Shown here: piece after piece, positions 33,896-58,523 of the stretch | How positions within the stretch are numbered: position 1 is the first letter of the stretch | Layout of the letters: each line of letters begins with the position of its first letter | Assembly: GCA_018433675.1 (NCBI GenBank) | Contig: JAHDQS010000045.1 | Span: forward strand, 70,356 to 134,355 | Direction: 5' to 3' | From: Clostridia bacterium | GTDB taxonomy: Bacteria > Bacillota > Peptococcia > DRI-13 > SM3-B62 | Length of the DNA stretch: 64,000 bases | Position numbers and translations under genes: made by a program | Notes under the pieces: generated by a model | What the model was told of the DNA's origin: nothing | The model's database searches: none | The model's input: only the letters and a program-made list of their open reading frames with translations

Positions 33896-35154
33896 CAGGG
33901 GAAAAATCAAATCCGTTGAGTTTTTTGCTTCGCTCTTTCCAATACAGGAACTATCGCCTGTATTTTGGGGGACAGAGTGTTTCACAGATAGGGACCTGGA
34001 TTCAGACTATTGCGCTAAGCTGGCTGGTTTACAGTTTGACCGGCTCTGCTTTGTATTTGGGAATCGTGGGTTTTATCGGGCAGATCCCAATTTTGGTGTT
34101 ATCGTTTTTAACCGGGGTTTTGATGGACAGGTGGAATCGCCATCGCACCTTTATCGCCACCCAGGTTTTGACGATGATACTGGCTTTCGTGCTGTCCGCA
34201 TTAGTGTTGACCGGAAGGATAGAGGTTTGGCACATTATTGTTTTAAGCTTGTTAAACGGCTTGGTGGCTTCTTTTGAATTAACATCCAGTCAAACGTTTT
34301 TGTACCATATTATCGAGAAGAAGGAGGACATTGGTAATGCCATTGCCCTCAACTCTATGCTGGTCAACCTGGCACGTATGCTGGGACCTTCTATAGCAGG
34401 TATTCTGATTGCCAGTATAGGAGAGGGACTGTGCTTCTTTGTCAACGGTGCGAGCTATCTTCCCGTTATTGCGGCCTTGCTTCTCATGAGGGTTAAGCCT
34501 CAGCCGCCTGCCGCTTCTAAACGAAATATTTTAAAGGGGCTGCAGGAAGGGATTAACTACGCCTGTGGCTCTACTCCCATCATCTCCATCATACTGCTTC
34601 AGTCTCTGATTAGCCTGATTGGGATGCCCTTTCAGGTGCTGATGCCGGTTTTTGTTCAGGAGATTTTAAATGGCGGACCTCACGCCCTCGGTTTCATCAT
34701 GGGATGTTCCGGCGTAGGGGCTATTGTCGCCACCCTTTATCTGGCCACACGGCGGGATCCTTTCGGTCTGGTTAAATTAGTACCCGTGGCCGCCGCTATT
34801 CTGGGTGCGGGTTTGATTGCTTCTTCTTTGTCGCGTCTTACGGTGTTGTCGATGTTTTTTGCCTTGTTTACCGGCTTTGGCGCTATTCTTTTAATGGCGG
34901 TGAATAATACGGTTTTGCAGACAATAGTCGCTGACGATAAAAGGGCTCGGGTCATGAGCTTATATACTATTTCTTTTTTAGGTATTTATCCCTTTGGAAA
35001 TTTGTTGGCAGGGGGTTTGGCCAATTTAATCGGTGTACCGAACGAGTTCATGTTGAGCGGAATTTGCTGTTTGGTAGGGTCGCTGGTTTTTGCCAGCAGG
35101 TTAGGGGCTATCAAAGCCGGTATCAAGCGGCCCTCCCAGCAGGTATCTTCTTGA
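33892..35154 (+). CDS. MFS transporter (MFS_3 / EntS-like exporter family)
   Basis: Start overlaps the PKS stop (ATGA at 33892-33895); RBS AAGGAGAG. Multi-TM protein, FRNYRLYFGGQSVSQIGTW...MDRWNRH, typical of the enterobactin-exporter-like MFS family. Confidence 0.85.
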   Translation: MTGEKSNPLSFLLRSFQYRNYRLYFGGQSVSQIGTWIQTIALSWLVYSLTGSALYLGIVGFIGQIPILVLSFLTGVLMDRWNRHRTFIATQVLTMILAFVLSALVLTGRIEVWHIIVLSLLNGLVASFELTSSQTFLYHIIEKKEDIGNAIALNSMLVNLARMLGPSIAGILIASIGEGLCFFVNGASYLPVIAALLLMRVKPQPPAASKRNILKGLQEGINYACGSTPIISIILLQSLISLIGMPFQVLMPVFVQEILNGGPHALGFIMGCSGVGAIVATLYLATRRDPFGLVKLVPVAAAILGAGLIASSLSRLTVLSMFFALFTGFGAILLMAVNNTVLQTIVADDKRARVMSLYTISFLGIYPFGNLLAGGLANLIGVPNEFMLSGICCLVGSLVFASRLGAIKAGIKRPSQQVSS

Positions 35155-43840: not shown

Positions 43841-43917
43841 GTGCCCATAGCTCAGCTGGATAGAGCAACGGCCTTCTAAGCCGTGAGTCCGGGGTTCGAA
43901 TCCCTGTGGGCACGCCA
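43841..43917 (+). tRNA. tRNA-Arg (anticodon TCT)
   Basis: Cloverleaf with acceptor GTGCCCA/TGGGCAC, anticodon loop CTTCTAA, GGTTCGAATCC T-arm and encoded CCA. Confidence 0.9.
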
Positions 43918-43924
43918 TAAACAT

Positions 43925-44001
43925 GGTGGCTGTGGCGAAGTGGTTAACGCACCGGATTGTGGCTCCGGCACTCGTGGGTTCAAGTCCCATCAGTCACCCC
44001 A
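43925..44001 (+). tRNA. tRNA-His (anticodon GTG)
   Basis: Extra 5' G(-1), anticodon loop TTGTGGC, GGTTCAAGTCC T-arm and encoded CCA. Confidence 0.9.
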
Positions 44002-44020
44002 TACTAAAATACCGTTTTTT

Positions 44021-44095
44021 TGGGGCGTCGCCAAGCGGTAAGGCAACGGACTCTGACTCCGTCATCCGTAGGTTCGAATCCTACCGCCCCAGCCA
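44021..44095 (+). tRNA. tRNA-Gln (anticodon CTG)
   Basis: Acceptor TGGGGCG/CGCCCCA, anticodon loop CTCTGAC, GGTTCGAATCC and encoded CCA. Confidence 0.9.
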
Positions 44096-44110
44096 TTTAA
44101 AATACAATGA

Positions 44111-44186
44111 GGGCCATTAGCTCAGCTGGTAGAGCACCTGACTCTTAATCAGGGTGTCCCGGGTTCGAATCCCTGATGGCCCACCA
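44111..44186 (+). tRNA. tRNA-Lys (anticodon CTT)
   Basis: GGGCCATTAGCTCAGCTGGTAGAGC, anticodon loop CTCTTAA, GGTTCGAATCC and encoded CCA. Confidence 0.9.
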
Positions 44187-44201
44187 TATTTCCCTTGATA
44201 T

Positions 44202-44284
44202 GCGGGAGTGGCGGAACTGGCAGACGCGCTGGATTTAGGTTCCAGTGGGAGACCGTGGGGGTTCAAGTCCCTTCTCCCGCACCA
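44202..44284 (+). tRNA. tRNA-Leu (anticodon TAG)
   Basis: Long variable arm, anticodon loop TTTAGGT, GGTTCAAGTCC and encoded CCA. Confidence 0.9.
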
Positions 44285-44330: not shown

Positions 44331-44447
44331 TATTTGTTTTATTATTTGAATGAAGATAATAATAATTAATTGCCATGCGAATGGATTAAATTGGTTATAC
44401 TGTAGAGGTTATACTTAGAGAAGTTACGATGTATGGGAGGAGAACAA

Positions 44448-45740
44448 ATGAAAGTTACTGCTGAAAGATTGGACAAAACAAGGGCCCAGGTAACTGTGGA
44501 AATATCCGAAGAGGAATTTGAGCCCTCGTTACAAAAGGCTTACCGGATAGTTGTGAAAAAAGTCCAAATTCCGGGGTTTAGAAAAGGAAAAGCACCACGC
44601 CGCATTCTTGAAAATATGTATGGTAGGGAAATACTTTTAGAGGATGCCATCAATGATGCAATTCCCACTGCTTATGCGAAAGCACTTGAGGAGATAAAGG
44701 ATGAATACGTAGCGGTAGGGCAACCGGAATATGACATTGTCCAGGTCGAAAAAGATGAACCTGTCATTTTTAAAGCCGCATTTGATATCAAGCCCGAGGT
44801 GGTTTTGGGGCAATACAAAGGGTTGGAGCTCAAGAAGGAGAAGGTTGACGTAACAAAAGAGCATGTTGATAAAGAGATATCCCTGATGCAGCAGCGTTAT
44901 GCCAAACTGGAAGTTGTGGAAGGTCCTGCACAAGAGGGAGATATAGTGAGTATTGACTTTGAGGGCAGGATCGGCGAAGAAGCATTCCAGGGCGGCAAAG
45001 GGGAAGACTATTCTCTGGAATTAGGTTCAAACACCTTTATTCCAGGCTTTGAGGAACAGGTTGTCGGAATGGCAAAGGATGAAACAAAAGATATTAAGGT
45101 TATGTTTCCCGAAGATTACCAAGCTGAAGAATTGGCAGGAAAGGAAGCAGTATTTACGGTAACAATTAAGGAGATAAAAAGGAAGGAACTGACTGAGCTG
45201 GACGACGAGTTCGCAAAAGACGTATCCGAATTTGCTACAATGCAGGAATTAAGGGATGATATCGAGAATAAATTAAAGGAAGCGGCAGAGAAGAAAGCCG
45301 AGGAAGCATTAAAAGAAAGCGCCGTTAAATTAGCTGCGGAAAGTGCCGAAATAGATGTGCCGCAGTCGATGATAGAAAGCAGGATCGATACATTGGTTGG
45401 GAATTTTGCTCAAGAGATCCAGCGCCAGGGAATACCTTTCGAGTATTATCTTGAGGTCACAAAAAACACTCTTGAGGGGATAAGAGACGGTTATCGTCCC
45501 AATGCGGAAGCTTCGGTACGTTCCGATCTGGTTTTGGAGGCTATAGCGAAGGAAGAAAAAATTGAAGTCACTCCCGAAGATGTTGATGAAGAGATAGAAA
45601 AAATTGCCAAACAGGTTAATCAGGAAAAAGAAAAGGTTCGCGAGATCATGGAAAAGCAGGGACAGATTTCTTCGATAGAATTTGGTATAATGATGACGAA
45701 AGCGGTAGACCTTATAATTGCAGAGGCAAAAGTAGAGTAG
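44448..45740 (+). CDS. tig: trigger factor
   Basis: MKVTAERLDKTRAQVTVEI...IPGFRKGKAPRRI. GGAGGAG lies 7 nt upstream of the ATG at 44448; the track start is 44433. Confidence 0.95.
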   Translation: MKVTAERLDKTRAQVTVEISEEEFEPSLQKAYRIVVKKVQIPGFRKGKAPRRILENMYGREILLEDAINDAIPTAYAKALEEIKDEYVAVGQPEYDIVQVEKDEPVIFKAAFDIKPEVVLGQYKGLELKKEKVDVTKEHVDKEISLMQQRYAKLEVVEGPAQEGDIVSIDFEGRIGEEAFQGGKGEDYSLELGSNTFIPGFEEQVVGMAKDETKDIKVMFPEDYQAEELAGKEAVFTVTIKEIKRKELTELDDEFAKDVSEFATMQELRDDIENKLKEAAEKKAEEALKESAVKLAAESAEIDVPQSMIESRIDTLVGNFAQEIQRQGIPFEYYLEVTKNTLEGIRDGYRPNAEASVRSDLVLEAIAKEEKIEVTPEDVDEEIEKIAKQVNQEKEKVREIMEKQGQISSIEFGIMMTKAVDLIIAEAKVE

Positions 45741-45777
45741 AAAAAAGTGTTAACGGTTCCAAACGGAGGTGTTAGTT

Positions 45778-46419
45778 GTGTATAATAATAAACAGGGCTT
45801 CGACGGTCCGTCTTTGCAGACGCTTGTTCCCATGGTTGTTGAACAGTCAAGCAGGGGCGAGCGTGCTTATGATATATATTCCAGGCTGTTGAAGGACAGA
45901 ATCATTTTTTTGGGTTCGGCAATAGATGATAACGTGGCTAATCTGGTTATTGCTCAGTTATTGTTTTTATACGCGGAAGACCCTGATAAGGATATTTCGC
46001 TGTATATTAACAGCCCGGGCGGTTCTATTACAGCAGGTATGGCTATTTATGACACAATGCAATATATCCGCGCAGATGTGTCGACTATTTGTGTGGGTCT
46101 GGCGGCATCGATGGGGGCATTTTTGTTGGCTGCGGGAGCAAAGGGTAAGCGCTATGCTTTGCCTAATGCGGAGATACTAATCCATCAGCCTTCGGGAGGT
46201 GCCCAAGGGCAGGCTACCGATATTGAAATCCATGCAAAAAGAATCATACACATCAGGGAGAAACTGAATAAGATATTAGCACAGAACACAGGACAGTCAA
46301 TCCAAAGAATACAAGAAGATACAGAGCGAGATCGTTTTATGGATACTGAAGAGGCTAAGAAATATGGTATTATTGACGATTTACTTTTAAGGATTCCTGA
46401 AAACCCCAAGACCAAATAG
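45778..46419 (+). CDS. clpP: ATP-dependent Clp protease proteolytic subunit
   Basis: [30 protein letters not shown]; active-site context [11 protein letters not shown]; HQP. The start is uncertain: GTG at 45778 is 8 nt after GGAGG, and the ATG at 45832 is the alternative. Confidence 0.9.
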
Positions 46420-46434
46420 TTAAGAGGTGAAACT

Positions 46435-47697
46435 ATGTACAAATTTGGGGACGAGAAAGGGCAACTGAAGTGTTCTTTTTGTGGCAAAATGCAAGATCAG
46501 GTAAAAAAACTGGTGGCAGGTCCGGGCGTTTACATCTGCGACGAATGTATTGAGCTTTGCAACGAGATAATTGAAGAAGAATTAGCAGAGGACGTTGGTC
46601 TTGATATCGGTGAAATACCGAAACCTAAGGAAATTAAAGATATTCTTGATCAATATGTCATTGATCAGGAACCGGCGAAAAAAACGATGGCAGTTGCCGT
46701 TTATAACCATTATAAACGGATAAACATGGGAATAAGGACAGACGATGTGGAACTGCAAAAGAGTAACATTATTATGCTGGGGCCCACGGGAAGCGGCAAG
46801 ACCTTATTGGCGCAAACCTTGGCACGTATCTTGAATGTTCCTTTTGCTATCGCCGATGCCACATCCCTTACTGAGGCGGGATATGTGGGCGAAGATGTGG
46901 AAAACATCTTACTGAAGCTTATTCAGGCCGCGGATTATGATGTGGAAAAGGCAGAGAAGGGTATAGTATACATTGATGAAATCGACAAGGTTGCCAGGAA
47001 ATCCGAGAACCCCTCGATTACAAGAGATGTTTCCGGTGAAGGGGTGCAACAGGCCCTCCTGAAAATATTGGAGGGAACTGTGGCCAGCGTTCCACCTCAG
47101 GGTGGGCGTAAACACCCTCATCAGGAATTTATTCAGTTGGATACGACCAACATTCTCTTTATCTGTGGAGGAGCCTTTGAAGGTATTGATAAGATTATCC
47201 ATAATCGTATCGGTAAGAAGGTAATGGGCTTTGGCGCAGATATCAAGAGCAAGACGGAAGTCAAGGTGGGGGAGGTTCTCAGCAAGATACTGCCTACGGA
47301 TCTTGTTAAGTATGGGTTGATTCCCGAATTTGTCGGGAGGATGCCGATAGTTGTCACCTTGGATGCTCTTGACGAGAATGCCTTGGTACGCATCTTGACA
47401 GAGCCTAAAAATGCCTTGGTTAAGCAGTACCAGAAGTTTCTCGAGCTTGACAATGTCTCCTTGGAGTTCAAGGCTGATGCACTTCAGGCCATTGCGGCTG
47501 AAGCAATCAAACGAAACACCGGCGCCCGGGGCTTGCGGTCAATAATCGAGTCATTGATGCGCGATGTGATGTATGAGATACCTTCAAGGAGAGACATCAA
47601 CAAGTGCATTGTCACAAAAGAAGTTGTTAAGAACAATGAAGAGCCGTTGCTCGTTACGACCAGTGAACGCAAAAAGAAGAAAGAGGAATCAGCTTAA
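46435..47697 (+). CDS. clpX: ATP-dependent Clp protease ATP-binding subunit ClpX
   Basis: N-terminal zinc finger CSFCGK...CDEC; Walker A GPTGSGKT; IVYIDEIDK. Confidence 0.97.
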
Positions 47698-47720
47698 AAA
47701 ACAACATAAAGAGTAGATAA

Positions 47721-47745
47721 ATAGCCAGGCATAACGCCTGGCTAT
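47721..47745. terminator. bidirectional terminator hairpin between clpX and the SASP gene
   Basis: Perfect 10-bp stem ATAGCCAGGC / GCCTGGCTAT with a 5-nt loop, between convergent genes. Confidence 0.7.
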
Positions 47746-47757
47746 TGAGCTTCGAAA

Positions 47758-47946
47758 CTAAAGAGGATTAGCATTAGCTGTTGTTAAGTTTCTCTGTGCC
47801 ATTTGGATGGCGGTTTTAACCATGTTGCCGCAGTTGCGGGATGAGACGTTGCCGAAGTCCCCGTCTGCTCGTACCTGATCAAAGAAACCCAACTCCTTGG
47901 CAATTTCCATCTTAAGAGAATCTGACATTACGCGTCCATTTCTCAT
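47758..47946 (-). CDS. alpha/beta-type small acid-soluble spore protein
   Basis: SDSLKMEIAKELGF......NVSSRNCGNMVKTAIQMAQ matches the SASP signature. The ATG at 47946 is preceded by AAAGGAGGA; the track start at 47994 is an upstream extension. Confidence 0.85.
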   Translation of the reverse strand: MRNGRVMSDSLKMEIAKELGFFDQVRADGDFGNVSSRNCGNMVKTAIQMAQRNLTTANANPL

Positions 47947-48113
47947 GGGATGATCCTCCTTTTTTGTTTTTCGGCCCGTTATTATTGTCTGCAAAATAGA
48001 TTTAATAATTTAATAAAAATATTTCCATAGATGTCATTTTTCATAGAAAGGCCGCCGAGGAAATCACGGTGGCTTATTCTGACTTTCCAGCATCGACTTT
48101 TGCCCGAAAAGCA

Positions 48114-48143
48114 GGATAAAAGAGCCTGTGGCAGGCCATAATA
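48114..48143 (+). promoter_or_regulatory. candidate forespore-type (sigma-F/G-like) promoter upstream of lonB
   Basis: GGATA, 18 nt, CATAATA, about 17 nt upstream of the lonB ORF start. By-eye consensus match only. Confidence 0.3.
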
Positions 48144-48159
48144 AGAGCACAGTGGAAAT

Positions 48160-49872
48160 ATGGGAAGTGATGATGTGTTGAACGGGGAATTTGCCGGAAT
48201 ATTTATGATGCTGCAGGTATTTTTTGTTATCGTGATAGGTCTTTATTTTTTAAATCTCTTGCGTGGACAGCAGGGAAGCAAGACGGCTGTTTCTAAAGAA
48301 TCCCGGAAGGAGCTGGACAAACTTGAACGCATGAGGAAGGTGAAACTAAGCCAGCCGTTGGCAGAACGGACCAGGCCCAGCAGCTTTGCCGATATAGTAG
48401 GGCAAGAAGAAGGCATACAGGCTTTGCGGGCGGCTTTATGCGGCCCTAATCCTCAACACATCATAGTTTACGGTCCGCCGGGTGTAGGGAAAACTGCGGC
48501 GGCAAGGCTTGTTTTGGAGGAAGCAAAAAAGAACCCCCTTTCTCCTTTTGACAAAGAAGCAAAATTTTTAGAGGTAGATGGGGCAACTTCCCGTTTTGAC
48601 GAAAGGGGTATTGCCGATCCTTTGATTGGTTCGGTCCATGATCCCATTTATCAGGGAGCGGGGGCAATGGGGGTAGCGGGTATCCCTCAGCCTAAGCCGG
48701 GAGCGGTAACAAAGGCTCACGGAGGAGTGCTGTTCATCGATGAGATCGGGGAGCTTCATCATATGCAGATCAATAAGCTGTTGAAGGTCCTGGAAGACAG
48801 AAAGGTAACGATGGAAAGCGCGTATTACTCCACTGAGGATGCCAATATACCCAGCCATATCCATGATATCTTCCAAAACGGCTTGCCAGCTGATTTTCGT
48901 TTGATTGCGGCAACAACAAGGCAGCCCCAAGAGATTCCGCCGGCGATACGTTCGCGTTGCGTAGAGGTATTTTTTCGTAATCTCCTGCCTCATGAAATAG
49001 GCATTATCGGAAAAAACGGTGCGGATAAAATCGGTGTTCCGGCTGAAAAAGAGGCTTTGGATGTGCTTGTTAAATATGCCAACAACGGTAGGGAGGCAGT
49101 GAATATCATTCAGATTGCCGCCGGTTTGGCCTTGATGAAGAAGAAAAAAGTGATAACAGCTAAAGAAATTGAATGGGTCGTAAACTGCGGACACTATTCG
49201 CCGCGACCGGAGAAAAAGGTGCCGGACGAACCGCAGGTCGGGCAGGTGAGCGGTCTGGCGGTTTACGGATGCAATATGGGCATGCTTTTAGAGATAGAAG
49301 TGTGCGTAATGCCGGTGAATACAACAAACGGCAATATTATTATAACGGGCATCGTCGAAGAAGAGGAAATGCACGCCACGGCTGGATATACCACACGTCG
49401 CAAGAGCATGGCCAAGGGATCGGTGGAGAATGTTTTGACGGTGCTTAGACATAGCTTAGGCTTGGATTGCAGGAACTATGATTTGCATGTAAATTTTCCG
49501 GGGGGTATCCCTGCAGACGGACCGTCGGCAGGGATAGCGATTGCTGTTGCCATTTATTCAGCTATTACTGGGACTCCTGTCGACAACACCGTTGCCATGA
49601 CGGGAGAGCTTTCGATACGGGGTAAGGTAAAGCCGGTGGGAGGAATAGCGGCAAAGGTAGAGGCAGCACGATTAGCGGGTGCGGAAAAGGTGATTATTCC
49701 GCAAGAGAATTGGCAAACGGTTTTTTCTGAGATGGGAATAACAGTGGTTGGCGTTGAGAAGATAGAGGAAGTGATAGAACAAGCGTTATTACCTAAACAT
49801 ACAGAGTGCAATACGGTTGTTAACAATGTGAAGCAAGCGAAACAGAGCCAAGTATGTCCCCTGATTTCGTAG
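48160..49872 (+). CDS. lonB: sporulation protease LonB
   Basis: N-terminal TM helix; [40 protein letters not shown]; C-terminal Lon protease domain DGPSAGIA...K. The start codon is uncertain. Confidence 0.9.
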   Translation: MGSDDVLNGEFAGIFMMLQVFFVIVIGLYFLNLLRGQQGSKTAVSKESRKELDKLERMRKVKLSQPLAERTRPSSFADIVGQEEGIQALRAALCGPNPQHIIVYGPPGVGKTAAARLVLEEAKKNPLSPFDKEAKFLEVDGATSRFDERGIADPLIGSVHDPIYQGAGAMGVAGIPQPKPGAVTKAHGGVLFIDEIGELHHMQINKLLKVLEDRKVTMESAYYSTEDANIPSHIHDIFQNGLPADFRLIAATTRQPQEIPPAIRSRCVEVFFRNLLPHEIGIIGKNGADKIGVPAEKEALDVLVKYANNGREAVNIIQIAAGLALMKKKKVITAKEIEWVVNCGHYSPRPEKKVPDEPQVGQVSGLAVYGCNMGMLLEIEVCVMPVNTTNGNIIITGIVEEEEMHATAGYTTRRKSMAKGSVENVLTVLRHSLGLDCRNYDLHVNFPGGIPADGPSAGIAIAVAIYSAITGTPVDNTVAMTGELSIRGKVKPVGGIAAKVEAARLAGAEKVIIPQENWQTVFSEMGITVVGVEKIEEVIEQALLPKHTECNTVVNNVKQAKQSQVCPLIS

Positions 49873-50045
49873 ATTCATATCTTAACTTTCTTCATAATAC
49901 CCGCCGCATACTCGTGGCCTCAGTCGTGAGTCAGGCGGGCTTAGTTGCTTAAGCCACTATAATTATTGTCTTGTACATGTTAAAATATATATGATGTTGA
50001 ATAAGGGGATAGAATTGTATTATCAGCGGGAGGTGTAATACAAAC

Positions 50046-52382
50046 ATGACAAAAACGGAACAAAATGAACGTACAATGCCGCTGCTTCCCCTGCGAGGTG
50101 TAATGGTCTTTCCATATATGGTCATACACCTTGATGTAGGGCGGGAGAAGTCGATTAAAGCTCTCGAAGAAGCAATGCTCAATGACCGCGAGATATTTTT
50201 AGCTGCCCAAAAGGATGCCCAGCATGATGACCCGCAACAGAATGACATCTATCAAGTCGGCAGCGTAGCTGAAATAAAACAGTTACTAAAACTTCCGGGG
50301 GGCACAATCCGGGTTTTAGTTGAGGGCTTAAGCCGTGGGAAAATTGAAGAATATCTTGAAGAGGAGCCTTATTACCGTGTCAGAATTGTAGAATTTGAGG
50401 AGGATACGGACAAGACTTCGGAGATTACGGCTCTTATGCAAAACCTCATTAGCCAATTTGAGCAATACGTTAAGCTGAGTAAAAGGATTGCTCCGGAGAG
50501 TGTGGTAGGGATTGTTACTATTGAAGAACCACATCGCTTGGCTGACCTTATTGCTGCCCATTTGAACCTGAAAATACCCGATAAACAGGCGCTGCTCGAA
50601 GCGGTAGATATTAAAACCAGGTTAGAAAGGCTGTCTTTGATTATTGCGGGAGAGCTTGAAATTTTGGAACTTGAGCGAAAAATCAACATGCGCGTACGCA
50701 AGCAGATGGAAAAAACTCAGAAGGAATACTACCTGCGGGAGCAAATGAAGGCTATTCAAAAGGAACTGGGGGAAAAGGACGAACGCGGTGTGGAAAATGA
50801 GGAGTATCGTAAGAAGATCAAGGAAGCTGGGTTGACCGGAGAGGTTGAAGAAAAGGCCCTCAAGGAACTGGATAGATTAAACAAGATGCCTCCAATGGTA
50901 GCGGAATCGGCAGTTATCAGGAATTACTTAGATTGGTTGCTGTCCATTCCCTGGAACAAGACAACGGAAGATAAGATAGACATTAAAAGGGCTGAACGAA
51001 TACTCAACGAAGACCATTACGGATTAGAGAAGGCTAAGGAAAGAATCCTGGAATATTTGGCAGTCAGGAAGCTGACGCAAAAAATCAAAGGGCCCATTAT
51101 TTGTTTTGTCGGTCCTCCCGGGGTAGGGAAAACCTCTTTGGCAAAATCGGTGGCCAGGGCTTTGGAACGCAAGTTTGTACGGATGTCTTTAGGCGGAGTG
51201 CGAGACGAAGCCGAAATACGGGGCCATCGGCGGACATACGTAGGAGCGATGCCGGGACGGATTGTGCAAGGACTGAAGAATGCCGGGACGAAGAATCCGG
51301 TTTTTCTCCTTGATGAAGTAGATAAAATGAGCACGGATTTCCGCGGAGACCCTTCTGCCGCTCTTTTGGAAGTGCTCGATCCGGAGCAGAATAATACGTT
51401 CAGTGATCATTACATCGAAGTACCGGTGGATTTATCCCAGGTATTATTTATTACCACTGCCAATGTTTCATATAGCATTCCCCGGCCTTTGCTGGATAGG
51501 ATGGAACTAATCTACATTTCCGGTTATACGGAAGATGATAAGCTGAATATCGCGAAAAGCTATCTCTTGCCCAAGCAGGTTAAGGAGCATGGCTTGAAAA
51601 AAAGTCAGTTTACGCTCAGTGAAAATGCCATCGTTGGGATTATTCGTCTTTACACAAGGGAAGCCGGGGTCAGAAATCTGGAGAGGGAATTAGCCAGTCT
51701 TTGCCGTAAGGCTGCCAAAAAGATTGCCGCGGGAACAAAAAAAAGGGTAAGTATCAACAGTAAAAACCTTGCCGAGTATTTAGGTATCCCACGTTATCGC
51801 TATGGTGTGTCCGAAAAGGAAAACATAGTTGGAGTCGTGACCGGGCTTGGCTGGACCGAGGTAGGCGGAGACGTTTTGAATATCGAGGTTACGATGGTTA
51901 AAGGCAAAGGCAAGCTGACACTTACCGGGAAACTGGGGGACGTAATGAAAGAATCCGCCCAAGCAGGGTTTACCTACGTACGTTCCAGGGCCGAAGAGTT
52001 GGGGATTGCCGAGAGTTCTTACGGGGACTATGATATCCATATCCACGTTCCGGAGGGGGCTATACCAAAAGACGGTCCTTCCGCCGGTATCACCATGGCA
52101 ACTGCTTTGGCTTCCGCTTTGACCAACAGAAAAGTAAAGAGCGAAGTGGCTATGACAGGAGAGATTACTTTGCGGGGACGGGTACTGCCGGTTGGCGGCA
52201 TCAAGGAAAAGGTCTTAGCCGCCCACAGGGCGGGAAGTAAAGTGATTATTTTACCGTCGGAGAATAAAAAGGATTTAGAAGATATCCCTGTAAATATAAA
52301 AAAGAACCTGGAATTTGTTCTGGTCGAACATATGGATCAGGTCCTGGAGGTCGCTTTGGAAGATGAAGGTAAAAAAAGCTGA
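50046..52382 (+). CDS. lon: ATP-dependent protease Lon (LonA)
   Basis: LON N-terminal domain [13 protein letters not shown]; Walker [10 protein letters not shown]; protease [13 protein letters not shown]...K. Confidence 0.97.
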
Positions 52383-52956
52383 ATACATTATTAGTGCCGT
52401 CGGGCCTGGGCAGTATCCTGACGGCGAACAACCGGAAATTGCCCTGCTCGGGCGTTCAAATGTGGGCAAATCTTCATTGATTAACAAGTTTGTCAACAGA
52501 AAAAACCTGGCACGTACCAGCAGTCGTCCCGGAAAAACACAGGCCATAAATTTTTATCACATCAACGAGGCCTGGTATTTCGTTGACCTTCCGGGTTACG
52601 GTTTTGCGAAGGTATCAAAGGAGCAAAAGGCGGTCTGGGGTAAGTTCATTAACGAGTACTTATCTTCTCGGGAACAATTAGCCGGTCTTATTCAAATTGT
52701 TGACCTTCGACATCCGCCCTCCGCAGACGATGTAACGATGTACGAGTGGGTTGTGGCCTCGGGTATTCCCTATCTGATTGTTGCGACCAAGGCTGATAAG
52801 ATTTCCCGGGGGCAGTGGCAAAAGCATGAAATGATTATTCGAAAAAGGCTGAATGCCTCGAAGGATGCTTCTGTTGTGTTGTTTTCGTCCATATCCGGAT
52901 CAGGAAGTGAAGAGTTGGGAGGCTGGTTGGAGAAACTGTTAGAGGAGATTAATTAA
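52363..52956 (+). CDS. engB: ribosome biogenesis GTPase EngB/YsxC
   Basis: [12 protein letters not shown]; DLPGYGFA; TKADK. The ATG at 52363 overlaps the lon 3' end. Confidence 0.92.
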
Positions 52957-52960
52957 AAAA

Positions 52961-52983
52961 AGCCGTAGCTTTTTGCTACAGCT
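52961..52983. terminator. possible bidirectional terminator hairpin
   Basis: AGCCGTAGC-TTTTT-GCTACAGCT between convergent genes, preceded by an A-run. The stem is short and overlaps the minus-strand stop codon. Confidence 0.35.
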
Positions 52984-53635
52984 TTCTCTTAACCTCCAAC
53001 GCTTTCCCCATCACTTTTATTTTTAATGATTCCCCGCCCGCATAAATCTTAACGGGGTATGCCGTATTTGACGGTTGCAGGACGATGGTGGAGTCCTTTC
53101 TGTAAATACGGAACAGCTTCCCCGTGTCATTATCCACCGAGACCAGAGCAATTTCGCCGTTTTTTACTTGGGTGGTCTCTTTGATTAAACACAAATCGCC
53201 GGGTATAATATAGTCATTTTTCATAGAATCGTCCCGAATCCTTAGCCAATAATATTTATCGTTTAGAAGATTGTCACCGCACACACACTCGCGGTCAGAG
53301 CAGTATTCGTGGGAAAAAATCTTTTGGCCGGGTCGGATGTCTGATAATACGGGAAGTGTGCGGTATATCGTTTTTGTTTCGTCGTTTGTACTATTTTCAG
53401 AAAACTCCTCCTCCGTAAAAACCCGGGGGCAGATATCTTCCGTATAGCCTAACAGATAGTCGGTCGTAACGTTGAAGAATAAAGCAAATTTCTTGAGCAT
53501 TTCATAATCAGGGGATCTTTTCCCGGATTCATATAGAGAAATCGTTGATTCGGCAAGGTTGAAATGTGAACCGAGTTGGGATTGTGTAAGGCTCTTTTCC
53601 TGTCTTAATGCTCGAAGTCTTTCACCCAATTGCAT
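52976..53635 (-). CDS. XRE-family HTH repressor fused to an S24 (LexA/CI-like) peptidase domain
   Basis: N-terminal LGERLRALRQEKSLTQSQLG...STISLYESGKRSP. C-terminal S24 signature LRIRDDSMKNDYIIPGDL...NGEIAL. The ATG at 53635 is preferred over the TTG at 53656. Confidence 0.85.
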   Translation of the reverse strand: MQLGERLRALRQEKSLTQSQLGSHFNLAESTISLYESGKRSPDYEMLKKFALFFNVTTDYLLGYTEDICPRVFTEEEFSENSTNDETKTIYRTLPVLSDIRPGQKIFSHEYCSDRECVCGDNLLNDKYYWLRIRDDSMKNDYIIPGDLCLIKETTQVKNGEIALVSVDNDTGKLFRIYRKDSTIVLQPSNTAYPVKIYAGGESLKIKVMGKALEVKRKL

Positions 53636-53659
53636 AAAAAACCTACCGCCTTTCAACTA

Positions 53660-55306: not shown

Positions 55307-55744
55307 TTGAAGGAGCGGGTGCGGCAGCGTGAGAATACAAGAACAAAACGCAGATTAGCAGAAGGAAAGGCAATTTTAGTCGGTTGTATCGCAACTTTGG
55401 CAGTCTGGCTTCTTGCGGCGCTGTTGGCAGCACTTTGGGTTTATTTTAAAGGTACGGGTACGTACTTGTTTAGCACTTATATTTACCTTTTAGGAGTAGT
55501 TGGAGTTTTTGCCGGTGGTCTGGCCGCGGGTCTTCTAGCGGACAAAAGCGGTTGGACCAGCGGTGCAGCAGTCGGATTGCTGCTTGGCATAGTAGGGGTA
55601 GCGGTCGGTTTAGAAGTCATACCCCAAGCATATACCTTATTGGAGGGAGTTCGTTGTGTTCTGGTGTGGTCTTTGTGGGGTTTGAGCGGAGGTTATCTCG
55701 GATCTAGTATAAAGGCTGTTTTGAAGAAAACAAAGGAATCATAA
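55307..55744 (+). CDS. small integral membrane protein (YrzE / TIGR04086-like)
   Basis: TTG 6 nt after GGAGGA. Basic N-terminus, then four Gly/Ala-rich TM helices. Confidence 0.65.
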   Translation: MKERVRQRENTRTKRRLAEGKAILVGCIATLAVWLLAALLAALWVYFKGTGTYLFSTYIYLLGVVGVFAGGLAAGLLADKSGWTSGAAVGLLLGIVGVAVGLEVIPQAYTLLEGVRCVLVWSLWGLSGGYLGSSIKAVLKKTKES

Positions 55745-56315
55745 CATTAGCGAGTTTGCAAAATTAATATGGGATTATATAGAAAGAGATTACCCTTCTA
55801 TTGGTAGGATAGTTACTAAAAACCAATCATGCCGAGGAAGGAATAATCTCTTTATTGTTTTGTATAAAAAAGTATGAGTGGAGCCTCTGTCTTGGTCGAT
55901 CATGGTCACAGACAGGAGGTGATGCCCCGTGGAAATCTCAACATTGGTAAACCTTCTAATACTCATCGTAATGATCATGGCTTTAGCTCAAAAAAAGAAT
56001 TAGAACTGTGCTGTCACACAGTCCTATAGGGTGATGAAAACCTTATTAACGGCTGTGACCGGCCAAGAGGGGACAGCCACTCATTAAGGGACCTTCGGTG
56101 TTCACCGCACCGGAGGTTTCCATTTATATTATGCATAAAACAAAAAAAAATATCAAGATTTTTTCCCTTAGAAGATTATGCCAGATTATATCGTACGAAA
56201 TATAGAAAAAAGAGAACAAAAAAAGACGAAATAAAGAACAAAAGCAAGGAGGTAAATGAGCAAAAGTATTGCAATATATTGTGTAAAATGATATGCTGTT
56301 TTCGGAGGTGGTTGC

Positions 56316-57083
56316 ATGAAACCGTTAGAACCAAGGGAAGGTATCGTAGTAACTGCGAGCGAGTTGAAAAAAAACTTTGGGAAGTATTTGAATTGTGTTA
56401 GAAAGCAACATGATGTGGTCATTACTAAAAATGGCAGAAAAATTGCGAGGTTAACGCCTTATGTAACAGACATAGAGCAATATTTTACGGTAAGAGAGAA
56501 CGCCTTGGATTACCAATATGGCGGGAAAAAGGTATCCTATGAAGAATTTATGGTGATTAACGAAAATAGTAAGCTGAGAATGGAATTGATCAACGGTGAA
56601 GTCTACTTATTGGATTCGCCGAATATTATACATCAAGAAATCCTGGGAAGACTTTACCTCATGTATAACGAATACTTCAAGGATAAAAAATGCAGGGTAT
56701 TTTTTGCGCCTTTTGATGTGCACTTAAAGAAAAAGAAAATGAAGACACCGGACGTTGTGCAGCCCGATATCTTAGTGGTTTGTGATCTTGAAGGCAGTGT
56801 CGCGGAAAAAGGTCGGTATATGGGCACCCCGGATTTGGTCGTTGAAATCTTGTCAGACACCACCCGCAGCAAGGATATGATAGATAAACTGAATTCATAT
56901 ATGCTGTCCGAAGTAAAGGAGTATTGGATTATTGATCCGAAACAGGAGAATATAATCGTGTACGTTTACGATAATCATGAAGTTGAAAGGATCAGGACGT
57001 TTGAAAAAGGAGATATTGCTCAGTCCTTTGTATTTGAAGGACTAGCGGTAAATGTCCGGGAACTCTTTGAGGATTTGATATGA
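56316..57083 (+). CDS. Phd/YefM antitoxin-like domain fused to a Uma2 (DUF820, PD-(D/E)xK) endonuclease domain
   Basis: The N-terminal ~55 aa, VVTASELKKNFGKYLNCVRKQHDVVITKNGRKIARLTPY, are Phd/YefM-like. The C-terminal part, PDVVQPDILVV...TPDLVVEILSDTTRSKDMIDKLNSYMLSEVKEYWIIDP, carries the Uma2 core. Confidence 0.8.
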   Translation: MKPLEPREGIVVTASELKKNFGKYLNCVRKQHDVVITKNGRKIARLTPYVTDIEQYFTVRENALDYQYGGKKVSYEEFMVINENSKLRMELINGEVYLLDSPNIIHQEILGRLYLMYNEYFKDKKCRVFFAPFDVHLKKKKMKTPDVVQPDILVVCDLEGSVAEKGRYMGTPDLVVEILSDTTRSKDMIDKLNSYMLSEVKEYWIIDPKQENIIVYVYDNHEVERIRTFEKGDIAQSFVFEGLAVNVRELFEDLI

Positions 57084-57128
57084 GTCCGGGTACCTGAAAT
57101 AACTTGGTTTTATGAAAGGACGGACATA

Positions 57129-57137
57129 TGGTATAAT
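57129..57137 (+). promoter_or_regulatory. extended -10 promoter element (TGGTATAAT) upstream of the MNT/HepT pair
   Basis: TGnTATAAT about 40 nt upstream of the MNT start. Confidence 0.4.
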
Positions 57138-57175
57138 AAGTTTGGATTTTATAAGAATGCTTGGGAGGGGTAATT

Positions 57176-57463
57176 ATGTTAACCCTGACTCAAATTAAAG
57201 ATTCAATTACAGAGGTAGTAAATAAATATCCGGTTAAAAAACTGTCTATATTTGGGTCTTATGCAGATGGAAGCGCGACAGAAGGAAGTGATCTTGATAT
57301 GTTAATTGAGTTTTCATCAACAGAAGTTTCGCTTTTTTTACTATCTGAAATAAAAGATGAGATTCAATCTAAATTAAATAGAGAAATTGACTTGATTCAT
57401 GCGCCAATTGACGAAGGTGCTTTAATAAAAATTGACAGGGTCGTTGATATTTATGAACAGTAG
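57176..57463 (+). CDS. MNT nucleotidyltransferase antitoxin (type VII TA)
   Basis: LSIFGSYADGSATEGSDLDMLIEF (GSx10DxD). ATG after GGGAGGGG. Confidence 0.85.
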   Translation: MLTLTQIKDSITEVVNKYPVKKLSIFGSYADGSATEGSDLDMLIEFSSTEVSLFLLSEIKDEIQSKLNREIDLIHAPIDEGALIKIDRVVDIYEQ

Positions 57464-57788
57464 GGACAAGCAAATAGTGAAGAAAATTCTCCAAGAGATA
57501 AATGTAATAGGGCATTTAATTGCAGGGTACAACTTAGAAAAATTTATCCTCGATGAACGGACAAAGAGAGCCATATGCATGACATTAATAAACATTGGAG
57601 AGTTAAGCAAAAGCCTTACGGAAAGTTTTAAACAACAACATAATTATATTGCGTGGCGAGCTGTTGCAGGAATGAGAGATGTTACAGCGCATAAATATCA
57701 AACATTGAAAATGGGTGATGTATGGGTTACCGTCGTAAATGATATTCCAATACTAAAAAAGCAATTAAATGACATATTGAGCCAATGA
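57453..57788 (+). CDS. HepT (DUF86) RNase toxin
   Basis: Rx4HxY motif as RDVTAHKY. Overlaps the MNT gene by 11 nt. Confidence 0.85.
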   Translation: MNSRDKQIVKKILQEINVIGHLIAGYNLEKFILDERTKRAICMTLINIGELSKSLTESFKQQHNYIAWRAVAGMRDVTAHKYQTLKMGDVWVTVVNDIPILKKQLNDILSQ

Positions 57789-57809
57789 CATTTTATGGGA
57801 CAACCTTAG

Positions 57810-57839
57810 TTGGACAACTACATTCTTACATGCTATAAT
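57810..57839 (+). promoter_or_regulatory. sigma-A promoter with extended -10
   Basis: TTGGAC, 18 nt, TGCTATAAT. Followed by a ~130-nt leader before the ECF S-component gene. Confidence 0.55.
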
Positions 57840-57977
57840 ATTTGCAATACCATGAAGGTATTTGCTTTCTTGAAAGAAAGCGCAGGCCTCGTGGTGTTTT
57901 TTTTGTGCGAACGGGGTTCTAACTGTGTTTAAGATTAACGCAGGTCAAGAATTCAGAATAAGGATGGTTGATGAGAA

Positions 57978-58523
57978 GTGAAAAAACAAGAAGTGAGAAA
58001 GTTGGTTTTAGCCGGTTTGTTTCTGGCGCTGTGTTTAGTACTTCCGTTCTTGACGGGTCAACTCAAGGAGCTTGGTAATGCTCTCTCGCCGATGCATATT
58101 CCGGTCTTGCTGTGCGGTTTTATTTGTGGGTGGCAGTACGGTTTGGCAGTAGGGTTTATAGCACCGTTGCTTCGCTTTTTACTGTTTGGGATGCCACCCA
58201 TTTTTCCCATTGGAATTTCCATGGCCTTTGAACTGGCCGCTTATGGCCTTTTATCAGGGCTTCTTTACAATCTGCTTCCCAAAAAGACGGGTAATATCTA
58301 TGTGACACTGATTGTCTCGATGCTCCTTGGCCGTATCGTCTGGGGTATTACCAGGGTAGTAATACTGGGAGTAGCCGGTATTGAATTTACCTGGGCCATG
58401 TTTATCACCGCGGCCTTTATTAAATCTGTTCCCGGTATTATAATTCACATCATTTTAATACCTCTCATAGTGATTGCCCTGCAAAAAGCTAACCTTATGG
58501 AGGATAAGAAAGAGTCTTGTTGA
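57978..58523 (+). CDS. ECF transporter S component (substrate unknown)
   Basis: Six-TM small protein: LVLAGLFLALCLVLPFLTG...MHIPVLLCGF...GRIVWG. ECF_trnsprt-like. Confidence 0.75.
   Translation: MKKQEVRKLVLAGLFLALCLVLPFLTGQLKELGNALSPMHIPVLLCGFICGWQYGLAVGFIAPLLRFLLFGMPPIFPIGISMAFELAAYGLLSGLLYNLLPKKTGNIYVTLIVSMLLGRIVWGITRVVILGVAGIEFTWAMFITAAFIKSVPGIIIHIILIPLIVIALQKANLMEDKKESC

Follow-up and report, generated by a model that had tools for sequence, protein, structure and literature searches.

Uma2 (DUF820, COG4636) is a very large protein family of the PD-(D/E)xK nuclease fold, with four crystal structures, that was proposed in 2009 to be a "likely solo toxin," rarely tied to antitoxins (PMC2701414). 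We analyzed a gene in a 64,000-nucleotide stretch of a Clostridia bacterium contig (JAHDQS010000045.1; this whole stretch is hereafter the window, and all coordinates refer to it unless another locus is named) that encodes a Uma2 domain preceded by a small domain of the Phd/YefM antitoxin type. We denote this gene, and the family to which it belongs, Phd-Uma2; no paper describing such a fusion was found in the literature. The gene, its domains, and the codons of the putative catalytic residues are located as follows:

56316..57083, plus strand: complete Phd-Uma2 gene (N-domain, linker, and Uma2 domain; 255 amino acids plus stop codon; open reading frame list, Pfam)
56343..56462, plus strand: Phd/YefM-type DNA-binding and dimerization domain (N-domain), residues 10-49, beta-alpha-alpha-beta-beta (Pfam, TIGR01552, AlphaFold2, Foldseek)
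56463..56531, plus strand: linker, predicted to be flexible, residues 50-72 (low model confidence)
56532..57080, plus strand: Uma2 (DUF820, COG4636) domain of the PD-(D/E)xK nuclease fold, residues 73-255 (Pfam, PADLOC, PDB, Foldseek)
56583..56888, plus strand: span of the putative catalytic residues E90, D151, E177, and K191, with D134, D187, H106, and Q107
56583-56585, plus strand: codon of E90, putative catalytic residue
56766-56768, plus strand: codon of D151 ("QPD" motif), putative catalytic residue
56844-56846, plus strand: codon of E177 ("VVEILS"), putative catalytic residue
56886-56888, plus strand: codon of K191, putative catalytic residue

Domain architecture, putative active site, and distribution

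The gene starts with an ATG codon preceded by a Shine-Dalgarno sequence, GGAGG, at 56304-56308, and the open reading frame lies exactly where an earlier interpretation of the window from its letters alone (the sequence-only reading) had placed it. That reading also recognized a Phd/YefM-like domain at the N-terminus and a Uma2 core in the C-terminal part, and both assignments are confirmed because sequence profiles and fold agree. The Uma2 domain matches nearly the full PF05685 profile (residues 76-247, profile positions 2-171 of 172, E = 3.5e-29, 101.9 bits against a cut-off of 27), and a sequence search of the Protein Data Bank (PDB) retrieved the structures 9y1l and 6okh for this domain. 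The N-domain is detected both by PF02604 (PhdYeFM_antitox; residues 11-49, E = 7.8e-9, 35.6 bits against a cut-off of 29.8) and, over the same residues, by the NCBIfam model TIGR01552 (phd_fam; E = 5e-10). AlphaFold2 (AF2) modeling of the monomer from an alignment of 42 diverse family members (mean predicted local distance difference test score [pLDDT] of 86.4) revealed a beta-alpha-alpha-beta-beta core (residues 10-46), a linker segment with pLDDT below 50 (residues 52-66), and a confident alpha/beta domain (residues 67-255), with pLDDT above 90 in the Uma2 domain. In a Foldseek comparison to the PDB, the C-terminal part of the model retrieved the four solved Uma2 structures 6okh, 9y1l, 3ot2, and 1wdj (E from 5e-16 to 1e-9), of which 6okh was the best match (E = 4.7e-16, target TM-score = 0.89). 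The N-terminal part retrieved the N-terminal domains of VapB46 (6jqy), RelB2 (3g5o), and 2odk, as well as the DNA-binding domain of P1 Phd (4zlx, 4zm2), in all cases with a root mean square deviation of about 1 Å over about 40 residues.

The PF02604 match spans only positions 3-42 of the 74 profile positions, and positions 43-74 are unmatched in the Phd-Uma2 protein. The part that is present is the dimerization and operator-binding half of the antitoxin. In Phd/YefM antitoxins, the toxin is held by the C-terminal, largely disordered half. Judging by the Pfam profile and by comparison to the tails of stand-alone relatives of the N-domain (see below), this toxin-binding segment has no counterpart in the fusion, and the linker shows no resemblance to these tails. 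The architecture of Phd-Uma2 is, then, only the DNA-binding half of a Phd/YefM-type antitoxin joined to a complete predicted Uma2 nuclease domain. The linker contains a motif of its own, [VI]-x-E-x-x-x-x-[YF] (E61 and Y66), in which E61 is at least 90% conserved among 42 divergent fused proteins; located in a segment modeled as disordered, this motif could form a dimer helix or a cis-docking peptide.

The sequence-only reading proposed a covalently linked antitoxin-nuclease, and the antitoxin-derived fusion stands, but self-restraint of the nuclease, the other part of that proposal, is weakened. In such a single-chain toxin-antitoxin (TA) module, the Phd-like part or the linker would hold Uma2 inactive in cis, and stress- or phage-induced loss of the N-terminal part, mediated for instance by Lon or ClpXP, would free the toxin. 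This possibility is consistent with the origin of the N-domain and the promoter-operator from a genuine antitoxin (see below), with the location of the Uma2 domain in the toxin's place, and with the predicted flexibility of the linker, the E61/Y66 motif of which could dock in cis; furthermore, CapRel, which has been described as a fused toxin-antitoxin (PMC13423816), provides a precedent, and a solo toxin is what Uma2 had been proposed to be. However, the C-terminal tail of the relatives is gone, the monomer model includes no confident contact between the N-domain and the Uma2 domain, and members of this Uma2 subclade that are unfused, and whose active site is the same, are widespread without any partner. 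No separate Phd gene is annotated beside plasmid Uma2-only genes. Given that partner-less unfused members are common, the nuclease apparently needs no neutralizer, so that the fused domain is more likely to be regulatory than protective, and we consider restraint in cis to be distinctly unlikely.

Within the Uma2 domain, E90, H106, Q107, D151, E177, S180, D187, K191, Y195, and E202 are invariant in the 42 fused proteins, and the conserved Uma2 residues are nearly invariant across 150 fused and unfused representatives. We read E90, D151, E177, and K191 as a putative PD-(D/E)xK site with the lysine shifted to the following helix, because position 179 is occupied by leucine. The absence of lysine from the canonical (D/E)xK position could also be taken to indicate that Phd-Uma2 acts as a transcription factor, its Uma2 fold being catalytically silent and functioning as an oligomerization, DNA-clamping, or sensor domain, and along the same lines, there is no demonstrated activity in the literature for any Uma2 protein, and an early paper suggested that Uma2 proteins might bind DNA (PMC1274311). 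A silent regulator nevertheless appears highly unlikely: the invariance or near invariance of E90, D151, E177, D187, and K191 is the pattern expected of an active site, and no regulon is evident, with phased arrays in 781 kb of sequence detected only at the starts of the family's own genes (see below).

Another conserved feature is the pair Cys126 (56691-56693) and Cys156 (56781-56783), which is invariant in this Uma2 subclade. Based on the strand register in the AF2 model, the two cysteines should face each other on neighboring antiparallel strands and could form a disulfide, a redox switch, or a metal site. We considered and rejected the pair as a fusion-specific trait: unfused members of the subclade have it as well. 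The solved structures 9y1l and 6okh lack it. In an N-terminally truncated family copy (L057, 5980-6654), Cys126 is changed to Ser.

The fusion is not confined to the window. Both Pfam domains were identified in 119 of the best 120 matches (70-100% identical) among 5.8 billion proteins; these matches come from many independent assemblies of Bacillota, including the isolates Candidatus Formimonas warabiya and Dethiobacter alkaliphilus. At greater distances, with identity down to about 36%, a Phd-like N-domain is present in 49 of the best 150 representatives of clusters at 50% identity; in this clustered library, the Uma2 family comprises 11,264 representatives that match the query at E<=1e-3. 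The 76 loci that we collected from species-representative genomes belong mostly to uncultured anaerobic Bacillota, along with three Paenibacillus isolates and a few bins labeled Acidobacteriota. In the phage collection, the plasmid collection, and IMG/VR, we found no full-length fused copy, only Uma2-only proteins and stand-alone Phd relatives; a search of BFVD yielded nothing useful.

Comparison of the window to a syntenic ortholog locus (L001), the protein of which shares 95% of its amino acids with that of the window, indicates that both domains are under purifying selection. The gene as a whole has a ratio of nonsynonymous to synonymous substitution rates (dN/dS) of 0.06; taken separately, the N-domain with the linker gives 0.04 and the Uma2 domain 0.07, compared to 0.047 for the neighboring lon gene. 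The notion that the gene evolves faster than its flanks was rejected, given that the whole region is about 93% identical between the two loci (with a synonymous distance, dS, of about 0.3). The sequence-only reading had named a frameshift or assembly error joining two genes as one condition that would undo the fusion. A decayed split copy does exist elsewhere (L079; see below), but nothing at this locus counts in favor of an artifact; the same uninterrupted architecture in independent assemblies, among them those of F. warabiya, D. alkaliphilus, and the Paenibacillus species, together with purifying selection on both halves, shows that the fusion is genuine, and we assign virtually no probability to the artifact.

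Some loci contain degraded or multiple copies. Apart from the truncated L057 copy, a 171-amino-acid remnant of a family gene was found in L073 (5917-6432), and in L079 (2639-3546), a frameshifted Phd-Uma2 fragment lies beside a Uma2-only gene and a separate Phd-PIN pair. We rejected the interpretation of L079 as a split version of the system encoding Phd and Uma2 separately, because the Phd-containing part is a frameshifted remnant adjoining a Uma2-only gene. Such turnover into decayed copies is typical of TA-like genes. F. warabiya encodes two Phd-Uma2 genes side by side (L080, 6001-7637), and L012 (1608-3412) contains a head-to-head pair of Uma2 fusion paralogs. In two other loci, Phd-Uma2 is followed by a gene encoding an HTH_17-Uma2 fusion, within about 25 nucleotides (nt) in L032 (6001-7549) and about 260 nt further on in L043 (6001-7790). 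An additional fusion variant, P0225, is a 598-amino-acid protein that consists of HTH_3 and tandem Uma2 domains.

The upstream array of Phd-Uma2 and Phd-PIN genes

The neighborhood and upstream analyses were performed on 73 family loci with otherwise unrelated contexts; for the latter, the 260 nt preceding codon 10 were compared. In an unbiased count of 6-mers, the most enriched words were TCGCAC (18-fold), TCGTAC (16-fold), and CGCACA and GTACGA (15-fold each), all outranking the Shine-Dalgarno word GAGGTG (11-fold). These words are parts of a single motif, (A/T)ATCG(C/T)AC(A/G), with a GTAC or GCAC core, the best instances of which, such as ATCGTACGAT, are perfect palindromes centered on GTAC. 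Scanning with a position weight matrix (PWM) detected 2.1 sites per 260-nt upstream region, against a background of 0.185, and up to four or five sites per gene. The sites are positioned with precision, with sharp peaks at -110, -88, and -65 relative to codon 10: 37 adjacent pairs are exactly 22 nt apart and 48 are spaced by 21-23 nt, with more near 44 nt. The 781 kb of locus sequence contain 70 pairs with the 21-23-nt spacing. For 69 of these, the start of a family gene is no more than 300 nt away; the remaining pair, in L070, precedes a family gene that is cut off by the contig end. Intact arrays occur, for example, in L080 (F. warabiya, CP017634; sites at 5919 and 5941), L016, and L032. We compared the motif to the consensus of the LexA (Cheo) box and rejected this identity, because the core is CG(C/T)AC, CGAAC is found in only a minority of the sites (12 of 111), and this variant lacks an inverted GTTCG partner.

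When the upstream regions were aligned, most of the 73 showed the same promoter layout: a TTGyAy -35 element, a 17-nt spacer, a TATAAT-like -10 element that is often extended, and about 8 nt between the latter and GGAGGTG. One site abuts or overlaps the -35 element, the spacer contains a degenerate copy, AAATCGTCC, and the others are located upstream at 22-nt steps. This fixed position relative to the -35 and -10 elements has the appearance of a regulatory signature, and the phased GTAC/GCAC-core array suggests an operator.

The likely source of this array was identified when IMG/VR was scanned with the family alignment. The scan retrieved stand-alone proteins of 71-77 amino acids that are 43-53% identical to residues 10-49 of Phd-Uma2, belong to the same Pfam family, and are each followed by an overlapping gene for a PIN (PIN_3) toxin, which makes them genuine VapBC-like modules. 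Database relatives of the 71-amino-acid protein of this type number 3,804 at E<=1e-5; the three that were examined in context all precede PIN genes. We scored the upstream regions of these Phd-PIN modules with the PWM trained only on the fused family and found that four independent modules have sites in the same 22-nt phase. In L102, the L104-L106 group, and the L110-L111 group, the sites are at -65 and -43 from the ATG codon, with an additional site at -21 in L102, and in the L107-L109 group, they are at -46 and -24; across the modules, the sites flank the -35 element, fall within the spacer, and extend as far as the region of the transcription start. Beside Uma2-only genes (about 22 loci), no phased array was detected. 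Because the N-domain is the only component common to the fusion and the Phd-PIN systems, the motif belongs with the N-domain. The most economical history would be one in which a stand-alone Uma2 nuclease acquired the promoter-operator and the repressor domain of a VapB antitoxin of the Phd type. The movement of the operator array with the N-domain, and the presence of the same array ahead of Phd-PIN modules, are new here.

In the window, the features upstream of Phd-Uma2 are the following:

56269..56297, plus strand: putative sigma-70-type promoter (-35 TTGCAA at 56269-56274, 17-nt spacer, -10 TATGCT at 56292-56297)
56188..56201, no strand assigned: consensus operator-like site ATATCGTACGAAAT (palindrome TCGTACGA centered on GTAC)
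56209..56244, plus strand: two weak degenerate sites with cores at 56213 (AAAGAGAACAAAAA) and 56235 (ATAAAGAACAAAAG), in 21-22-nt phase with the strong site

The promoter is missing from the list produced by a default promoter scan. The ATATCGTACGAAAT site, which is conserved in L001, is the best plus-strand match to the family motif in the entire window (score of 16.8 with the 14-nt PWM and 13.2 with the 11-nt PWM). It is also one of four exact matches to ATCGYACR in the window, against 3.75 expected, such that the motif is neither enriched nor avoided there. The two weak sites score 5.1 (56213) and 3.8 (56235); across the window, scores of at least 5 occur at 0.09% of the positions and scores of at least 2.5 at 0.38%. 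The PWM scan found no recognizable site abutting the -35 element. We interpret this arrangement as an apparently decayed operator array, in which case autoregulation may be weak at the window locus.

The promoter segment at 56201-56300 is only 66% identical to L001, compared to 98-99% for the preceding 400 base pairs (bp) and 98-100% for 55400-56200. This pattern across 55400-56300 could have arisen from recombination, if a recent tract ends close to the operator site, or from constraint on a non-coding element. No Rfam families were detected in the non-coding region upstream of Phd-Uma2.

The sequence-only reading offered, as its other suggestion, that a Phd-like DNA-binding domain had been recruited to target the nuclease. 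The recruitment of a DNA-binding domain is closer to the evidence than self-restraint, but targeting appears less likely than autoregulation, to which the phased array in the gene's own promoter points. Under the targeting scenario, the N-domain would deliver Uma2 to GTAC/GCAC sites in foreign DNA, a homing target, or a repair substrate, with the sites in the gene's own promoter being of incidental or secondary importance. Compatible with such a role are the additional fusions of Uma2 to HTH_17 (L032 and L043) and HTH_3 (P0225), the selection on the N-domain that persists although the promoter array of the window is decayed, and the listing of Uma2 models in PADLOC as the defense candidate PDC-S03. 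On the other hand, all 70 phased pairs are at the starts of the family's own genes, the motif occurs at chance frequency in the window, and the sites are fixed relative to the -35 and -10 elements; moreover, in Phd-PIN modules, the same array serves no nuclease. If the protein cut DNA beside its own promoter, the effect would be self-destructive, and neither a methyltransferase gene nor any other gene for self-protection is located nearby. We therefore view a sequence-targeted nuclease as rather unlikely.

Gene neighborhood and other features of the window

All-against-all clustering of open reading frames of at least 60 codons from the 73 loci identified no conserved neighbor gene, and no small open reading frame (20-110 codons, within 400 nt) was common to more than four loci. 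The 133 nearest flanking proteins include AraC-type regulators, transporters, NDK, tRNA synthetases, and similar proteins; among these, no methyltransferase, toxin, integrase, or defense gene is recurrent, and of the handful of matches to defense models, none recurs. The observation in the sequence-only reading that there is no adjacent toxin or antitoxin partner thus extends from the window to the 73 loci. In the window, no gene for a cognate toxin (Doc, YoeB, RelE, ParE, or PIN) is located directly downstream of Phd-Uma2, and the absence of a DNA methyltransferase gene near it does not fit a type II restriction-modification system. The genes that are found downstream are:

57161-57463: MNT (NTP_transf_2), directly downstream of Phd-Uma2
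57432-57788: HepT, overlapping the end of MNT

The MNT/HepT pair, a type VII TA-like cassette (57110-57800), is missing from the syntenic L001 locus as a clean indel, in accord with the earlier view that it is unrelated to Phd-Uma2. The junction of the indel is bordered by a short direct repeat, TTTTATG(A/G), and accordingly, the site behind Phd-Uma2 seems to be a small insertion spot for TA-like modules.

Further upstream, the window contains a cluster of five tRNA genes (43841-44281) followed, in 44433-53656, by the conserved Bacillota block tig, clpP, clpX, lonB, lon, and engB and then by a gene for a LexA-like repressor (HTH_3 plus Peptidase_S24). Phd-Uma2, which comes just after these genes, is thus placed in the core chromosome rather than in a mobile island. 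A defense-island setting, which the sequence-only reading had brought up, was not seen, and neither the flanking genes nor the window context supports a defense-island or mobile-element location. The PADLOC model for PDC-S03 (PDLC04832) matches the protein with E = 3.6e-57 over residues 71-252, that is, over the Uma2 part only. This model belongs to a set of 145 untested "guilt-by-embedding" defense candidates (bioRxiv 10.1101/2024.01.29.577857). Location in or next to known defense systems, on which the PDC set is based, was not observed for Phd-Uma2 either in the window or among the 133 flanking proteins, and no paper on PDC-S03 was found.

The region upstream of Phd-Uma2 includes, on the plus strand, a 24-codon open reading frame for a hydrophobic peptide (55929-56003; MEISTLVNLLILIVMIMALAQKKN), with GGAGG nine nucleotides upstream, and a 136-nt stretch (55995-56130) with four hairpins ending in a terminator (z = -4.63, with none of 200 shuffles folding as well). 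A leftward promoter-like site is present at 56156-56128 and a minus-strand terminator at 56026-56001. Taken together, these elements resemble in their layout a type I toxin gene paired with an antisense RNA; neither the open reading frame nor the hairpin region has a match in Rfam or NCBIfam.

On the other side of the MNT/HepT cassette, the segment 57811-57977 contains the strongest promoter-like site in the region that was scanned (TGGACA and TATAAT, 17 nt apart, plus an extended TG) and, behind it, a leader of about 140 nt that precedes a gene for an ECF-transporter S-component (57978-58523) and a P-loop kinase-like gene. The layout of this leader appears typical of a riboswitch; in an Rfam scan of 57811-57977, no family reached the threshold. 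At the opposite end of the window, three very large open reading frames (15-33895; 6307, 3889, and 1146 amino acids) precede the gene for an MFS_3 exporter (33892-35154). The two of these frames that were scanned encode repeated KS, KR, DH, and ACP domains and RhiE-like KS linkers, with no acyltransferase domain listed, a pattern suggestive of a trans-AT polyketide synthase cluster.

Proposed mechanism and comparison with known systems

We favor, with moderate confidence, the interpretation of Phd-Uma2 as a solitary, self-regulating Uma2 nuclease that is built from parts of a TA module, with the repressor domain and operator originating from a VapBC-like module. The N-terminal 50 residues would be the dimeric DNA-binding domain of a Phd-type (VapB-like) antitoxin, which would have arrived together with the antitoxin's promoter-operator, that is, GTAC/GCAC-core sites spaced by 22 bp, or two helical turns, in an array that abuts the -35 element and extends into the promoter spacer. 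The toxin-binding tail of the antitoxin and the PIN toxin would have been swapped for a flexible linker and a complete Uma2 domain. By binding and repressing its own promoter, the Phd-Uma2 protein would keep a potentially harmful nuclease at a low, self-limited level; the regulatory logic of a TA system would thus be contained in one polypeptide, the regulatory half of the antitoxin being kept and the neutralizing half dropped. Our confidence is fairly high for the architecture and operator part of this scheme and much lower for an active and toxic nuclease. DNA binding by the N-domain and a repressing rather than an activating effect are inferred, as are the nuclease activity and the toxicity, and the biological role, whether that of an addiction, stress, or anti-phage module, is a guess.

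Several observations weigh against the autoregulated nuclease. In the window and in L001, what is left of the array is a single consensus site, about 75 nt ahead of the -35 element, and two weak in-phase sites, and the low dN/dS of the N-domain at this locus, despite the decayed array, implies that this domain must do more than bind a proximal operator; nuclease dimerization or binding of other sites are possible additional roles. In many family members, most of the strong sites are upstream of the -35 element, a geometry that is also compatible with activation. Only the monomer was modeled, so that cis contacts between the N-domain and the Uma2 domain may still be compatible with the model, and the conserved linker motif E61/Y66 is not accounted for. 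Finally, no activity or function was found reported for any Uma2 protein. The occurrence of HTH_17-Uma2 and HTH_3-Uma2 fusions, for its part, suggests a general design in which a DNA-binding domain is added to Uma2.

A bolder version of the autoregulated nuclease would give the linker motif a function. In this one-polypeptide TA or abortive-infection switch, the N-domain would tether a latent Uma2 nuclease to its own operator and E61/Y66 would be the trigger: cleavage or unfolding of the linker by Lon, ClpXP, or a phage factor would both de-repress the gene and free the untethered nuclease. We regard this switch as improbable; if true, it would provide the first mechanism for the large, long-uncharacterized Uma2 family.

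Irrespective of the switch, the autoregulated Uma2 nuclease bears on annotation and on the evolution of TA systems. The fused proteins are named "type II toxin-antitoxin system Phd/YefM family antitoxin" by NCBI, which is misleading because the protein has neither a neutralizing part nor a toxin partner; the present analysis corrects this widespread annotation and makes a family of long-standing "unknown function" directly testable. The experimental handle consists of a predicted DNA site, ATCGTACGAT at 22-bp phase, and a predicted regulatory circuit. Phd-Uma2 further shows how TA modules may be dismantled, with the repressor-operator half being reused for a different effector.

Among known systems, the closest to the N-terminal part are the Phd-PIN antitoxins (71-amino-acid proteins in L102 and L104-L111), which share with Phd-Uma2 the N-domain (43-53% identity), the Pfam family, and the 22-nt-phased upstream sites. 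In these antitoxins, the N-domain continues into a C-terminal tail of about 30 residues, and a PIN gene overlaps the antitoxin gene; in their place, Phd-Uma2 has the linker and Uma2. The E. coli YefM-YoeB system is similar in that a Phd/YefM-fold repressor acts on GTAC-centered palindromes: two palindromes, each with a TGTACA core, make up the YefM operator and overlap the promoter, and YefM is the primary repressor (PMC1802561); the best sites of the Phd-Uma2 family, predicted from sequence, are also centered on GTAC. In the YefM system, however, the spacing of the sites is 12 bp and the toxin is a co-repressor, whereas the Phd-Uma2 sites are 22 bp apart, have different flanks, and number up to four or five, and there is no separate toxin.

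CapRel resembles Phd-Uma2 in combining a toxin-type domain and an antitoxin-derived domain in one polypeptide. In CapRel and fused TA systems, the retained antitoxin domain is the neutralizing and sensing part; in Phd-Uma2, by contrast, only the DNA-binding part of the antitoxin is kept. The HTH_17-Uma2 and HTH_3-Uma2-Uma2 proteins, of which the former are encoded directly downstream of Phd-Uma2 in L032 and L043, likewise have a small N-terminal DNA-binding domain before a complete Uma2, although of a different DNA-binding fold.

Stand-alone Uma2 proteins (1wdj, 3ot2, 6okh, and 9y1l) share with Phd-Uma2 the Pfam span, the fold, and the conserved residues. They are encoded by solitary genes, often in paralogous cassettes, as noted for the "cassettes of paralogous genes" of cyanobacteria (Makarova et al. 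2009, PMC2701414), and the tandem Uma2 copies in L080, L012, L032, and L043 echo this organization. Unlike Phd-Uma2, the stand-alone proteins contain no N-terminal DNA-binding domain, no phased array was seen next to Uma2-only genes, and the solved structures lack the Cys126/Cys156 pair. Phd-Uma2 itself belongs fully to the Uma2 family in terms of profile, fold, and conserved residues. With no toxin-binding segment and no cognate toxin gene, it does not qualify functionally as a Phd/YefM antitoxin.

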